From Candidatus Thorarchaeota archaeon (GTDB lineage: Archaea > Asgardarchaeota > Thorarchaeia > Thorarchaeales > Thorarchaeaceae), in the NCBI GenBank assembly GCA_003345595.1, contig PRDI01000011.1, positions 1-38,244 on the forward strand: a stretch of DNA of 38,244 bases, written 5' to 3'. The notes under the pieces are model-generated. The model searched no databases. It saw only the letters and a program-made list of their open reading frames with translations, and was not told the origin of the DNA. A program made the position numbers and the translations under genes. Shown here in pieces: positions 13,223 to 19,489 of the stretch. The stretch's first letter is position 1, and each line of letters opens with the position of its first letter.

Positions 13223-13462
13223 TTGTCTAAGCTTGGGAGATTCAACCAACTTGTCTGTGAGGTATTCAAAGTCAATGAGTCAGATCTCAGCGACAGCGCA
13301 ACTCCCGATGACATCGAGGATTGGGACTCAGTAACACATATGGACCTGATGGCCCTCTTCGAAGAAGAGTGGGCTCTGGGCCTAGATGTAGAGGAGATTA
13401 CCGAGATGACAAGCATAGGTCTCATGAAGGAGATACTGAGGAAACATGGTGTTGACCTATGA
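13223..13462 (+). CDS. Acyl carrier protein
   Basis: 79 aa, highly acidic and helical. The phosphopantetheine site is DDIEDWDS*VTHMDLM..FEEEW. TTG start with gaggg upstream. Confidence 0.92.
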   Translation: MSKLGRFNQLVCEVFKVNESDLSDSATPDDIEDWDSVTHMDLMALFEEEWALGLDVEEITEMTSIGLMKEILRKHGVDL

Positions 13463-14958
13463 ATGTAGTTGACAACCTATTCCAGGAATCAAAGAGCGCG
13501 AAGAGGATTGCCTTGTTCCAAGGCAAGGAAACCATCACCTATCCCGACCTATACCGAGACATCCAGAGAGTGTCTGCGAAGCTGAGCCAGATGGGCCACA
13601 AGGCCGGTGACAAGATTCTGATCATGGCCGACAACTCATTCTTCTGGGTGGCAGCGTACTTTGGGACTATGGGTGCGGGGATGGTCGCTTTACCCCTGCA
13701 TCATACGGTGAGTGAGTCGCATCTGGACTTTGTAAGAGAGTCCTGTGAAGTCAGAACATGTTTTGTGCAGAGGAGATATGTAAAGAACATAGCCAAGTAC
13801 AACTTCCCTAACGTCATTGCTGACGAAGCCGGTGTCCCTGGGACAACCTACTTCGGGGATATCCCGGCAGCCAAGTTTCGGTTCGTTGATGTCGATATAC
13901 AGAACGCGCTGGCAGTTATCATATTCACTTCGGGCTCAACGGGCAAGCCCAAAGGAGTGATGCTCTCTCATCGCAACATCGAGTGGAACACGGATTCAAT
14001 CATCGAGTATCTCAGCTTGACGGAGAACGACCGCATGATGGTTGTTCTGCCGTTCTCATACTGCTACGGTGCGTCGTGGCTTCATACACTTGTGAAAGTC
14101 GGAGGCCAAATAGCACTCAATAACAGGTTCATGTTTCCGGGATTGGTCCTGAACGAGATGGTGGAAAAGAAATGCACAGGATTCGCTGGAGTGCCTTCGA
14201 CGTATCAGATCCTGCTCAGGAGGTCTGCCATGAAAAAGATGAAGTTTCCCGACCTCAGGTTCGCGGCACAGGCTGGTGGAAAGCTCAGCAATCCGTTCAT
14301 ACTCGAGTTGATTGAAGCACTCCCTACAACGAAGATCTTCATTATGTACGGTCAGACGGAAGCAACGGCTCGACTCTCGTACTTGCCCCCTGAACTCCTG
14401 AAAGCGAAGCTCGGCTCCTGCGGCAAGGGCATTCCTAGGACGACACTTGAGGTCCTGAAGGATTCTGGCGAACCCGTGAAACTTGGGGAAGTGGGCGAGA
14501 TTGTCGCCTCCGGCGGAAACATCATGATGGGGTACTGGAAGGACCCCGAAGGGACTGCGAAGGCTTTGCGAAACGGCAAGCTATATACCGGAGACCTAGC
14601 GACGGTAGACGAGGAGGGCTTCATATTCGTTGTCGACCGTCAGAAGGAGATCATAAAGAGTGGCGGCTACCGCGTCAGTCCGAGAGAGGTCGAGGAAACA
14701 ATCGCGAGCATCGAAGACGTCGTCGAAGTTGGAGTCATTGGAGTGCCCGATGACCTGATGGGAGAGGCTGTGAAAGCGTATGTTGTGCTTCGAGAAGGTT
14801 CGGGCCAAACTGAGAGAGACATCATCAATCATTGCCGCGGCAGACTCCCTTCCTTCAAAGTCCCGAAGTACGTAAAGCTCTTGAAGTCTTTACCCAAGAA
14901 TGAGGCAGAAAAAGTAATGATGGCCGCTCTCAGAGACATGCACTCGAAGGGAGAGTAA
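13459..14958 (+). CDS. ANL-superfamily adenylate-forming acyl-CoA/acyl-ACP ligase
   Basis: IIFTSGSTGKPKGV, YGQTEA, YTGDL, DRQKEIIKSGG.RVSP.EVE, and terminal LPKNEAEKV. ATGA overlap with the ACP gene. Confidence 0.95.
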   Translation: MNVVDNLFQESKSAKRIALFQGKETITYPDLYRDIQRVSAKLSQMGHKAGDKILIMADNSFFWVAAYFGTMGAGMVALPLHHTVSESHLDFVRESCEVRTCFVQRRYVKNIAKYNFPNVIADEAGVPGTTYFGDIPAAKFRFVDVDIQNALAVIIFTSGSTGKPKGVMLSHRNIEWNTDSIIEYLSLTENDRMMVVLPFSYCYGASWLHTLVKVGGQIALNNRFMFPGLVLNEMVEKKCTGFAGVPSTYQILLRRSAMKKMKFPDLRFAAQAGGKLSNPFILELIEALPTTKIFIMYGQTEATARLSYLPPELLKAKLGSCGKGIPRTTLEVLKDSGEPVKLGEVGEIVASGGNIMMGYWKDPEGTAKALRNGKLYTGDLATVDEEGFIFVVDRQKEIIKSGGYRVSPREVEETIASIEDVVEVGVIGVPDDLMGEAVKAYVVLREGSGQTERDIINHCRGRLPSFKVPKYVKLLKSLPKNEAEKVMMAALRDMHSKGE

Positions 14959-14962
14959 TAGC

Positions 14963-17141: not shown

Positions 17142-18428
17142 ATGACTATCCAGCTTATTATGAACGCAGGCGAGTTCCATGAGCCCTCTGTTCAGATTGA
17201 CAGTCTAGATGACGTTGCTGCCCAAGTCAGGGAAGGTATGGGCAGTTTGTTCAAGATGCCAATCGCAAACATACTGGATGTCCTCCAGAACCTCAGCCGG
17301 GCTCTCGTGCGAGACCCCGAGGTCAAGAAGATTGAGGGCATCGCTTTTCTCTCGAATTGGCTCCGAAAGGACAACTTGCTCAGAATGATTGAGATCAATC
17401 TCGGGCAGACCGATTTCTTGGACTCATTCGTGGAGAACCATCACAAACTCATTAGAGCTTTCCCAAGGGGGGTTGTCTGTCACTGGATAGCAGGCAATGT
17501 GCCCACTCTTGGACTGTTCTCGCTGTTTCAGTCGATGCTTACTAAGAATGGAAACATCGTCAGAGTTCCGGAATCGAGTCTGCCTAGCGTGATTCCTATC
17601 CTGAAACTGCTGTCCACGCTCAAAGGTGACCCAGCGACTGGTCAAGATCTTCTTCGGTCAGTGGCCCTTGTCCATTTCCCGTCTTCAGATCTGAGGTCTA
17701 ACGAAAACATGTCCAAGTGCGCAGATGCCAGGGTCGTCTGGGGTGGAAAGGAGGCGGTCGATGCCATAACCAACCTCCCGAGAGCAACTCACTGCGAGGA
17801 CGTGGTCTTCGGACCCAAGTATTCCTTCGCGGTCATTGACAGAGAAGCTCTCGAGTCTGAAAAGATGGGTCGTCTCCTGAGGAATCTGGCAACGGACTCT
17901 GTGTTGTTCGAACAAACAGCCTGTTCCTCCCCACATGTTGTCTTCGCGGAAACTGACTGGAATGGTGCTCTCAGACTAGCCGACAGACTGGCGGAAGAGT
18001 TTCGGCGGCTGTCGAGCATTATACCCAAGCGTGACTTCGAAATGGGGTCTGCAATCAAGATAATCAACAGAAGGGCTGAGTATGCATTGTCTCCAGACAA
18101 GGCTATGTTGGCTCCAAAGGAGAATGATTGGTCAATACTGGTTGACAACGAGACAAGGCTAGAAGAGCCAATACAGTCCAGGACTGTCTTCATGAAACCC
18201 GTCAAGTCTGTGATGGAAACCATTCCTCTTGTGACTAAGAATGTTCAGACGATTGGTAACGGTATACTCAACAGGCAGAAGGCTAAGGAATTCGCAGAGG
18301 GAGTGATGTATAGAGGGGCTGCCCGCGTCGTGCCCCTAGGCCAGATGCATATCCATGACTCGCCTTGGGATGGAATCCTGTTTCTCAGCCGGTTGGTCAG
18401 ATGGAATGCACTGACACCGGCTGGATAG
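17142..18428 (+). CDS. luxC: LuxC-family acyl-thioester (acyl-CoA/acyl-protein) reductase
   Basis: PRGVVCHWIAGNVP, VVWGG.EAV, FGPKYS, EQTACSSPH (catalytic Cys), PWDG. ATG lies 2 nt after the luxE stop. Confidence 0.93.
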   Translation: MTIQLIMNAGEFHEPSVQIDSLDDVAAQVREGMGSLFKMPIANILDVLQNLSRALVRDPEVKKIEGIAFLSNWLRKDNLLRMIEINLGQTDFLDSFVENHHKLIRAFPRGVVCHWIAGNVPTLGLFSLFQSMLTKNGNIVRVPESSLPSVIPILKLLSTLKGDPATGQDLLRSVALVHFPSSDLRSNENMSKCADARVVWGGKEAVDAITNLPRATHCEDVVFGPKYSFAVIDREALESEKMGRLLRNLATDSVLFEQTACSSPHVVFAETDWNGALRLADRLAEEFRRLSSIIPKRDFEMGSAIKIINRRAEYALSPDKAMLAPKENDWSILVDNETRLEEPIQSRTVFMKPVKSVMETIPLVTKNVQTIGNGILNRQKAKEFAEGVMYRGAARVVPLGQMHIHDSPWDGILFLSRLVRWNALTPAG

Positions 18429-18490
18429 GCATTTGCAGTGCCCGAGGCATCATTCAAAAGGAACGAATACTGTGCGAATCCCGATGCACT

Positions 18491-19489
18491 ATGAGCCCCT
18501 CCAAGATACTCAGGAAGTATGGCGTGCCTGAGGACGCTGTCGGAACGTGCGGGATACAGAGTCTGAGAGCCAAATATGTATCGTACTTGGACAACCCACA
18601 CTACATTTCACAGGTGCCCAGCAATGCCGATGGGTACGTCCTCGTCAGCCCGAAACTCATTGAGAGAGTGAGAGAGATTCCGGGGAATCTCTATGTGGAG
18701 ACGGCCAGTCCCACACAGGCGTTCCTTGAAATCCACAATGACTTTCACAGGGACGTGCGGTCGTTCACGACCGGGAGCAACACGCCGACCCATGGGAGCA
18801 ACTGCGAGATTGACGCGTCGGCCAAGTTTGGGGTACGTGTCACATTGGGCAGTGGAGTAAGAATCCATCCTCATGTCGTTGTAGGCAGCGATGTCGAAAT
18901 TGGCGATGACACCGAGGTCTTCGCGGGCACTGCGATATACAACAGAGTACGATTGGGCAGACGGTGCATCATAGATGCCAATGCGAGCATTGGTGGCGAT
19001 GGGTATAGGATAATGATGGATGCTGAGGGGAATATTCATCGACTGATTCACATCGGAGGCGTTCGCTTCGGGAACGATGTGGAGTTTGGCAACAGTTCCT
19101 GTGTTGACCGTGGCACCTTCGAGGACACGATCTTGGAGGACCGTGTTAAGATTGATAACATGGTTCACATTGGACACAATGTCCACATCAAGGAGAACAC
19201 TCAGCTTGCCGCTTCGTCGTGCATTGGCGGAAGCACAGTGATCGGTCGCAACTGCTGGGTTGGCATTGGAGCAACCATCTCCAATGGACTTGTAATAGGG
19301 GACAAAGCAAGTGTCTTGATCAATGCCATTGTTGTTAGGGATGTCCCCGAGGGCGCGAGAGTTGCTGGGTTCTATGCAATGCCCAATGATGCATGGCGCC
19401 TGGTTGTCATGGACGATACAAAACGCTTCGGAACACAGGTGAGGGAGATGGAGAGGAAGCGTTCAGACTCGGAGGACCGGCAGGAATGA
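18491..19489 (+). CDS. LpxD-family left-handed beta-helix N-acyltransferase
   Basis: Hexapeptide repeats plus the LpxD-specific string IGGDGY...HIGGV.FGNDVEFG..SCVDRGTFEDTI....KIDNMVHIGHNV, including the catalytic His. It also has an N-terminal alpha/beta domain ending in P..AF. The ORF opens at 18365; ATG 18491 is preferred. Confidence 0.88.
   Translation: MSPSKILRKYGVPEDAVGTCGIQSLRAKYVSYLDNPHYISQVPSNADGYVLVSPKLIERVREIPGNLYVETASPTQAFLEIHNDFHRDVRSFTTGSNTPTHGSNCEIDASAKFGVRVTLGSGVRIHPHVVVGSDVEIGDDTEVFAGTAIYNRVRLGRRCIIDANASIGGDGYRIMMDAEGNIHRLIHIGGVRFGNDVEFGNSSCVDRGTFEDTILEDRVKIDNMVHIGHNVHIKENTQLAASSCIGGSTVIGRNCWVGIGATISNGLVIGDKASVLINAIVVRDVPEGARVAGFYAMPNDAWRLVVMDDTKRFGTQVREMERKRSDSEDRQE

Follow-up and report, generated by a model that had tools for sequence, protein, structure and literature searches.

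A self-priming acyl-carrier-protein cassette in a Thorarchaeota glycan island, and the sugar acyl group that it may make

Acyl carrier proteins (ACPs) and the enzymes that prime them are, in the general view, missing from archaea. What, then, would an archaeon do with a set of genes that encodes an ACP together with its priming enzyme, next to a group of glycan genes? Such a cassette lies in the window analysed here, a stretch of 38,244 nt that makes up a whole contig (C11, PRDI01000011.1) of a 2.73-Mb metagenome-assembled genome of Candidatus Thorarchaeota, 83% complete. We consider it on balance probable that the cassette is an accessory, self-priming carrier-protein system for the acyl decoration of a surface glycan, working by the diacid mechanism proposed below. 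The parts of this reading carry different weights. Carrier-protein-dependent acylation of an amino sugar of the glycan is likely, an origin of the acyl group in a four-carbon (C4) diacid is a reasonable possibility that falls short of probable, and a route to the acceptor, UDP-glucosamine (UDP-GlcN), through a GalT-like enzyme is offered more tentatively still.

The first clue to function comes from Vibrio cholerae O1. Its rfbK-O genes (also named wbeK-O, VC0248-VC0252) are assigned to the 3-deoxy-L-glycero-tetronate (2,4-dihydroxybutyryl) group that N-acylates perosamine. A published O1-rfb primer served to locate this region in V. cholerae ATCC 14035, and we compared its proteins with those of the cassette by pairwise BLASTP. 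In that region the order is rfbK (ACP, 80 aa), rfbL (a ligase of the AMP-forming ANL type, 471 aa), rfbM (an iron-type alcohol dehydrogenase, Fe-ADH, 374 aa), rfbN (LuxE fused to LuxC, 825 aa) and rfbO (a left-handed beta-helix, or LbH, transferase, 188 aa). The archaeal genes follow the same order, from the ACP through the ligase, Fe-ADH, LuxE and LuxC to a hexapeptide transferase, with LuxE and LuxC as separate genes where V. cholerae has the fused RfbN. Every core pair aligns: the ACP with RfbK (26% identity, E 1.5e-7), the ligase with RfbL over its full length (27%, E 1.8e-51), the ADH with RfbM, also over its full length (27%, E 1e-31), LuxE with residues 1-372 of RfbN (37%, E 7e-75) and LuxC with residues 393-821 (35%, E 4e-79). 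The matches between LuxE, LuxC and RfbN are reciprocal and are the only ones in each other's genome, the best match of RfbL in the Thorarchaeota genome is the cassette ligase, and the best V. cholerae match of the cassette ADH is RfbM. Catalytic residues are preserved as well. The ACP shares the W-D-S-x-x-H-M carrier site with RfbK, LuxE keeps the cysteine of R-G-C-G-D near its C-terminus in the alignment with RfbN, and the catalytic cysteine of LuxC is kept in an A-C-S/A-S-P-H (A-C-S-S-P-H) motif. Judged by these alignments, the cassette is homologous to and colinear with rfbK-N (wbeK-N) from the ACP to LuxC.

An earlier note on this DNA had likened the gene set and its order to rfbK-O, and that likeness holds. 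The additions that it had pointed out, namely unfused LuxE and LuxC genes, a MaoC gene and a phosphopantetheinyl transferase (PPTase), are borne out by the Pfam and NCBIfam scans of open reading frame (ORF) translations from which the genes in the window were called (Table 1). Relative to V. cholerae O1, the Thorarchaeota cassette has, in addition to MaoC and the PPTase, a GalT-like gene and an alpha/beta hydrolase, and its output transferase is a 332-aa protein of LpxD type, with UDP- and ACP-binding domains, as against the 188-aa RfbO type. The hosts differ too. The Thorarchaeota host is an archaeon with no ACP or PPTase detected beyond the cassette and, unlike in V. cholerae O1, no perosamine pathway genes were evident among the window proteins scanned. 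The interval of 13223-19489 given in the earlier note proved too short, since the plus-strand unit comprises nine genes at 12809-21347, to which the adjoining minus-strand hydrolase (21304-22218) is to be added. From MaoC to the PPTase the intergenic spacing is -19 to +9 nt, with the exception of 62 nt upstream of the acyltransferase, and this tight packing makes the nine genes look like one operon. What is observed directly of this unit is which genes it holds, to what they are homologous, that their catalytic motifs are intact, and how the unit is packed and conserved.

Table 1. Positions of the cassette genes and of the PIG-L gene in the window, with the match that supports each call.
Feature	Position	Strand	Basis and remarks
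MaoC	12809..13213	+	ORF open from 12581, likely start ATG 12809; PF01575 E 1.7e-21
ACP, RfbK-like, 79 aa	13223..13462	+	PP-binding 17.9 bits, under Pfam cut-off
ANL (AMP-forming) ligase, RfbL-like, presumed ACP loader	13459..14958	+	PF00501 E 2.9e-70
Fe-ADH, RfbM-like	14963..16039	+	PF00465 E 1.8e-29
LuxE-type acyl-protein synthetase (carboxylate activation)	16021..17139	+	PF04443 E 4e-60
LuxC-type acyl-thioester reductase (aldehyde-forming)	17142..18428	+	ORF open from 17040; PF05893 E 3e-78
LpxD-type hexapeptide N-acyltransferase	18491..19489	+	ORF open from 18365; NF002060 236.6 bits
GalT-family (HIT branch) nucleotidyltransferase, 352 aa	19486..20544	+	Profile and fold match; without Pfam match
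Sfp/HetI-type PPTase	20541..21347	+	PF01648 26.9 bits
Alpha/beta hydrolase	21304..22218	-	PF00561 E 1.5e-15
PIG-L/LmbE-family de-N-acetylase	35707..36402	-	PF02585 E 8.7e-19

Is the small protein at the head of this order really a carrier protein, and can it be primed? As a single sequence it misses the Pfam cut-off for PP-binding domains. A profile of the cassette ACPs together with RfbK matches solved ACPs (2lml, E 3e-11; E. coli ACP, 1e-4), and the serine site (Ser36, in W-D/T-S-x-x-H-M) is invariant across the cassette homologues and RfbK. The cassette PPTase is the sole ACPS-family match in the genome; we found no second PP-binding match there and, by tblastn, no paralogue of either the ACP or the PPTase. 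As the genome is 83% complete, an ACP or PPTase elsewhere is to be taken as not found rather than as absent. A PPTase also accompanies the cassette in five of the Asgard genomes compared (G009, G389, G178, G193 and G188; G-numbers denote such genomes and L-numbers individual loci). By homology, the cassette would be self-priming, since it has an ACP and a PPTase of its own and no others were detected in the genome. We found no papers on ACPs, PPTases or LpxD in Asgard archaea in the open-access literature, to which our other statements on published work also refer.

The distribution of the cassette was followed through the family and the phylum with LuxE as the probe. Within the family it is present in 3 of 86 genomes, that is, in the window genome and in two of the 85 others (G009 and G389, which belong to two other genera), and the three same-genus genomes that were searched, 85-93% complete, lack it. 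In G009 and G389 the MaoC-PPTase block and the hydrolase are colinear with those of the window (54-75% identity; PPTase 23-29%). All three cassettes adjoin the same TatD/HD-MoCF flank, the one in the window being inverted with respect to the other two and abutting TatD. The same-genus genome G003 has the syntenic flank without a cassette, TatD being followed after 3.2 kb by PIG-L, and in G389 the cassette is inserted between TatD and PIG-L (window flank 11752-12540 against L034, L077 and L110). To the right of TatD lies a variable glycan zone in which the cassette is an accessory element.

In the phylum as a whole, 38 of 400 genomes gave LuxE-family matches. Eight loci from other Asgard families have a colinear ACP-ligase-ADH-LuxE-LuxC series (37-61% identity), with MaoC in five of the eight. 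The cassettes of other lineages include those of G178, G193, G188, G219, G329 and G330, of which the first three were annotated further: these have a PPTase and a small hexapeptide transferase of 195-230 aa, RfbO-like in G178 and G193, and a hydrolase is present in G193 and G188. The five core genes are colinear in all Asgard core loci and in V. cholerae. The LpxD-like and GalT-like pair was seen only in the three Thorarchaeota-family genomes and not in other Asgard cassettes; because those cassettes keep the core with a small transferase, the pair looks like a swapped output module. Comparison of the loci identifies the Thorarchaeota cassette as a common archaeal cassette in which the output enzyme has been exchanged. 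Homologues of the core enzymes also occur as natural fusions, LuxE-LuxC, LuxE-ANL and ADH-LuxE, the last in Hermod-type relatives. As a separate observation, the G009 cassette is adjoined at L034 (G009:C32, 16336-19999) by a PseB/PglF-type dehydratase, a DegT aminotransferase, a small hexapeptide acetyltransferase and a NeuC-like epimerase; these neighbours make up a pathway of bacillosamine or nonulosonic-acid type, which could supply another amino-sugar acceptor.

The presence of LuxE and LuxC raises the question of whether the cassette belongs with bioluminescence. LuxCDE of luminous bacteria contains the same LuxE and LuxC domain families, and the acyl-accepting cysteines are kept in the cassette, but the cassette proteins score far below the NCBIfam equivalog cut-offs (LuxC 113.5 bits against 750, LuxE 70.8 bits against 550). 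RfbN scores in the same range on these models (96 and 90 bits), and true Vibrionaceae LuxC proteins reach 855-946 bits. In a maximum-likelihood tree of LuxC, the window sequence groups with those of G009 and G389 (98/97), among Asgard core-cassette and bacterial fused LuxE-LuxC sequences and distant from the true-Lux clade. The cassette is without luxD or luxAB, no luciferase or LuxD domain having been found among the window proteins scanned. We therefore reject a bioluminescence or fatty-alcohol function on the grounds of the sub-equivalog scores and the distance of the true-Lux clade; a grouping with Lux, which would have told against the polysaccharide affinity suggested in the earlier note, was not seen. 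Many Asgard genomes have in addition a second LuxE and LuxC pair (L098-L101, L105, L108), 21-30% identical to the cassette pair and with no ACP, ligase or ADH nearby by tblastn. Most of its LuxC ORFs have a greater length, reaching 584 aa, and in the tree this group is the sister of true bioluminescence LuxC. Flagellin islands of Aeromonas and Enterobacteriaceae offer another likeness: as in the cassette, an ACP, ligase, LuxE and LuxC set lies within glycan loci, but a short-chain dehydrogenase/reductase (SDR) of FabG type replaces the Fe-ADH, the sets adjoin pseudaminic acid genes, and no dedicated PPTase is reported (PMC7874193, PMC4875605). The authors of those studies read the sets as fatty-acid synthesis genes and proposed a lipid component (PMC7874193, PMC4875605).

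The transferase at the end of the series is best described as an LpxD homologue. It exceeds the cut-off of the NCBIfam LpxD subfamily model NF002060 (cut-off 207) and stays below that of the LpxD equivalog TIGR01853 (216.5 bits, cut-off 242.5). Residues 18-323 align to solved LpxDs (E 2e-33) and cover all three LpxD domains, and the N-terminal, beta-helix and C-terminal regions and the catalytic His, in H-I-G-H-N, are common to it and to the LpxD of lipid A synthesis. Compared with bacterial LpxD, identity is about 30% and the gene sits in a carrier-protein cassette, not by fabZ/lpxA. Relatives with 58-77% identity, labelled Thorarchaeota or Sifarchaeia, form an archaeal clade of their own. 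No LpxC match was found in the genome (83% complete), nor did tblastn with the LpxD-like protein recover a second LpxD/LpxA-like hexapeptide acyltransferase. A role in lipid A synthesis is unsupported because neither was found, and we reject it on these grounds and on the sub-equivalog TIGR01853 score; public Thorarchaeota records annotate this gene automatically with a lipid A function, which is probably wrong. A scan of metagenomes with an alignment of the LpxD-like proteins returned almost solely ordinary bacterial LpxDs and did not return the close archaeal clade. One of 80 metagenomic LpxD loci had a ligase, LuxE and LuxC beside LpxD. At this locus (L199, WNFG01016361.1, 30-5715) an LpxD-like gene, a 119-aa ORF, a FabG-type SDR, an ANL ligase, LuxE and LuxC lie together, an independent joining of LpxD and cassette.

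The GalT-like gene, which the earlier note had overlooked, overlaps both of its neighbours, the acyltransferase and the PPTase genes, by 4 nt. Its 352-aa product has no Pfam match and stays below NCBIfam thresholds. A profile of its family matches 1z84 (At5g18200 ADP-glucose phosphorylase, E 5.7e-20) and 1hxq (E. coli GalT, E 5e-17) in the PDB, and an AlphaFold2 model (mean predicted local distance difference test score, pLDDT, 93.9) is matched to 1z84 by Foldseek with template-modelling (TM) scores of 0.68/0.76. Residues C77, C80, H128, H178 and H180 are invariant and Q182 nearly so, giving a Cys-x-x-Cys...His metal site and an H-P-H-x-Q nucleophile motif (H-x-H-x-Q in the family). On profile and model, the protein is a GalT-family nucleotidyltransferase whose sugar and nucleotide specificity is a prediction. 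At 50% identity the family falls into 592 clusters (E<=1e-3). About 40 of the 400 Asgard genomes encode strong members, some genomes as many as 3-4, in unrelated contexts (including L070-L089), with non-conserved neighbours and no LuxE or LpxD nearby, and the gene was for these reasons rejected as a marker of the cassette.

Two further enzymes bear on the nature of the acyl group. MaoC has as its best solved relatives the short-chain PhaJ hydratases 5cpg (E 1.4e-26) and 1iq6, and keeps the G-D-x-N-P-x-H catalytic motif; its orthologues are 71-75% identical and at the same position in G009 and G389, and a MaoC gene adjoins other Asgard cassettes too. It would thus be a PhaJ-type, (R)-specific enoyl-thioester hydratase, closest to the short-chain type. 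For the ligase, the best solved match is a feruloyl/fatty-acyl-CoA synthase, closer than dicarboxylate ligases or FadD5/FadD13; MatB, oxalate and MenE ligases are about as close as FadD5/FadD13. Taken together, the relatives of MaoC and the ligase appear to lean towards a short diacid, and neither is decisive.

The cassette opens onto a downstream glycan island with several family 2 glycosyltransferases (GT2) and one of family 4 (GT4), an asparagine-synthase-like amidotransferase, a UDP-N-acetylglucosamine (UDP-GlcNAc) 2-epimerase, a PMT_2-type transferase and PIG-L. In G389, PIG-L homologues are 2 kb away from the cassette, and in G219 they stand on its flanks. PIG-L is not specific to the cassette, because it is also present at the syntenic, cassette-less site of G003, and as a candidate supplier of a free sugar amine it is a weak link. 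The alpha/beta hydrolase has orthologues (48-49% identity) that adjoin the PPTase in G009 and G389, inverted together with the cassette, and a hydrolase lies beside the PPTase in G193 and G188 as well. Orthology of the Thor-type and Loki-type cassette hydrolases was not supported (E 0.008). That it serves as an editing thioesterase, an esterase or a lactonase are guesses.

How might these enzymes work together? In LuxE enzymes a carboxylate is adenylated and the acyl group is handed, by way of the enzyme's own cysteine, to LuxC for reduction to the aldehyde. The other families are known for the reduction of aldehydes (Fe-ADHs), the loading of carrier proteins (ANL ligases), the use of an acyl-ACP and a UDP-amino sugar (LpxD) and exchange with amino-sugar phosphates (GalT enzymes). 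If all the enzymes share a single substrate molecule, it must have two carboxyls, one to be reduced and one to be carried, and the occurrence of LuxE-LuxC, LuxE-ANL and ADH-LuxE fusions argues that the ligase, ADH, LuxE and LuxC serve a single pathway. The reading of the earlier note, by which a dicarboxylate has one end reduced and is carried by the other to an amino sugar, is in our analysis plausible, and its argument that two activating enzymes fit a substrate with two carboxyls is in keeping with these fusions.

From the above we infer the substrate, the order of the steps, the acceptor and the role of the GalT-like enzyme. The PPTase would turn the dedicated ACP into its holo form, and the ANL ligase would adenylate one carboxyl of a small dicarboxylic acid and load it onto the ACP. 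The PhaJ-like MaoC would hydrate an enoyl intermediate, for example fumaryl-ACP to 3-hydroxysuccinyl-ACP. The free distal carboxyl would then be activated by LuxE and reduced in two steps, by LuxC to the aldehyde and by the Fe-ADH from there to the alcohol, which would give a short omega-hydroxy or dihydroxy acyl-ACP. With beta-hydration by MaoC, the simplest product would be 3,4-dihydroxybutyryl-ACP from fumarate; in cholera O1 the group is 2,4-dihydroxybutyryl. The LpxD-type enzyme would move the acyl group from the ACP onto the amino group of a UDP-linked sugar, predicted to be a 2-amino sugar because the transferase is of LpxD type. The GalT-family enzyme, translationally coupled to the transferase, would probably supply the free-amine sugar by converting a UDP-hexose and glucosamine 1-phosphate (GlcN-1-P) into UDP-GlcN, and the neighbouring glycosyltransferases would use the acylated product.

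A number of points weigh against this reading, and in particular against the cholera parallel. The top-scoring V. cholerae segment for the cassette ligase is a FadD-like gene, slightly above RfbL, and the best match of RfbM in the Thorarchaeota genome is a different ADH, on contig C108. In the reciprocal comparison with WbeK-O proposed in the earlier note, best matches agree in both directions for LuxE and LuxC but in one direction each for the ligase and the ADH; the ACP was compared within the locus only. In the LuxC tree, the long branch of RfbN is pulled to the Lux side and forms no clean clade with the archaeal sequences; because its position is unreliable, we place it by pairwise identity and path lengths. 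The equivalence of the acyltransferase to RfbO, also part of the earlier note, fails. Its best V. cholerae match is the genuine LpxD, on another contig and adjoining fabZ/lpxA (fabZ being inferred from the usual gene order and lpxA from a weak LbH match); RfbO was not recovered genome-wide with the acyltransferase as query at E<=1e-3, and in a pairwise search the match to it is confined to the hexapeptide repeats (E 8e-4). By homology the enzyme is an LpxD homologue and not an RfbO orthologue. Since the GalT-like family is widespread outside cassettes, the role given to its member here rests on translational coupling and on the three cassette copies. This family of cassettes, with members in the cholera O1 antigen and in flagellin islands, was first recognised in sequences about 30 years ago. 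We found no biochemical assay of any cassette-type enzyme, including those of the V. cholerae pathway, and the V. cholerae tetronate assignment is for that reason a sequence-based proposal; nor did we find papers on tetronate biosynthesis from malate. WbeL of V. cholerae O1 is required for the O1 antigen, and its role in tetronate synthesis is described as 'predicted' (PMC3441752).

The chain length of the acyl group is the next matter to be weighed. Characterised LpxDs use (R)-3-hydroxy C12-C16 acyl-ACPs, which keeps a long acyl chain among the possibilities, and MaoC/PhaJ enzymes make (R)-3-hydroxyacyl thioesters. The acid could then be of medium or long chain, for example a scavenged alpha,omega-dicarboxylic or hydroxy fatty acid, and the LpxD-like enzyme would make an N-acyl, 'lipid-A-like' glucosamine that anchors the glycan or renders it hydrophobic. 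The top NCBIfam models of the ligase, which are labelled long-chain fatty-acid ligases, and the lipid component proposed for the flagellin islands agree with this, and yet we hold it to be improbable. The genome gave no match to LpxC or to a second LpxD/LpxA-like acyltransferase and, since the only ACP and PPTase detected are those of the cassette, nothing to indicate that fatty acids are made on an ACP, although fatty-acid synthesis enzymes were not themselves searched for. The closest relatives of MaoC are short-chain PhaJs, a monocarboxylic fatty acid would offer LuxE, LuxC and the ADH no second carboxyl, and the homologous system of known product, that of cholera O1, bears a C4 acyl group (PMC3441752).

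The same chemistry would serve equally if the ligase loaded aspartate, glutamate or another acidic amino or hydroxy acid, with reduction of the side-chain carboxyl leading to a homoserine-like (2-amino-4-hydroxybutyryl) or similar acyl group in amide linkage to the sugar. RfbL scores well on D-alanyl carrier protein ligase and amino-acid adenylation models, and an asparagine-synthase-like amidotransferase lies within the island. We nevertheless give this little credence, for DltA and non-ribosomal peptide synthetase (NRPS) adenylation models are absent among the best 25 NCBIfam models of the cassette ligase, MaoC would have no obvious role on an amino acyl thioester, and the cholera O1 product is a C4 hydroxy acid, not an amino acid (PMC3441752). 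Equally hard to credit is that two functions are merely co-located, LuxE, LuxC and the ADH reducing a separate carboxylate, such as a sugar acid, and the ligase, ACP and transferase attaching an ordinary acid. That LuxE acts on the ACP-bound species is a supposition, and the reductive partner differs in the flagellin islands, where it is a FabG-type SDR and not an Fe-ADH. Against such a division, the LuxE-ANL and ADH-LuxE fusions argue for a single pathway, and the five core genes are always colinear across Asgard families and V. cholerae.

Other features of the window deserve brief mention. Nre and Rpb5/RpoH are archaeal markers within it. At 8685-9293 (plus strand) an N-terminal Mrr_cat, or inactive restriction-endonuclease-like, domain precedes an Rpb5/RpoH domain (residues 125-197) in one fused gene, which is kept in the same-genus genome G003 (86%) and in G008 (62%). 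A gene at 10207-11733 (minus strand) combines an HD domain with a MoCF_biosynth (molybdopterin-binding) domain; the homologue of this fusion in the same-genus genome G004 (C4:289441-290957) is interrupted by 5 TGA and 2 TAG codons, which suggests a pseudogene or an assembly problem. This gene is adjoined by a conserved 256-aa ORF (9389-10159, minus strand), and a 546-aa ORF lies inside the glycosyltransferase island (23976-25616, minus strand), both without a Pfam match.

To return to the opening question, the ACP pathway of this Asgard glycan island is complete and self-priming by gene content, and it recurs across Asgard families. Because the archaeal cassettes are small, unfused and self-contained, they could be convenient for solving the chemistry of this cassette family. 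A further-reaching possibility, which we regard as unlikely, is that the synthesis of UDP-GlcNAc is bypassed in this Thorarchaeota lineage: the GalT-type enzyme would make UDP-GlcN from GlcN-1-P, a domesticated LpxD would N-acylate it with an (R)-3-hydroxy or omega-hydroxy C4 acyl-ACP, and N-(dihydroxybutyryl)glucosamine would replace GlcNAc at the surface. If true, this would mean archaeal use of lipid-A-type N-acylation and of an ACP in a lineage thought to be without ACP-dependent metabolism. More generally, the cassette suggests that the closest prokaryotic relatives of eukaryotes bear unusual N-acyl sugars on their surfaces.

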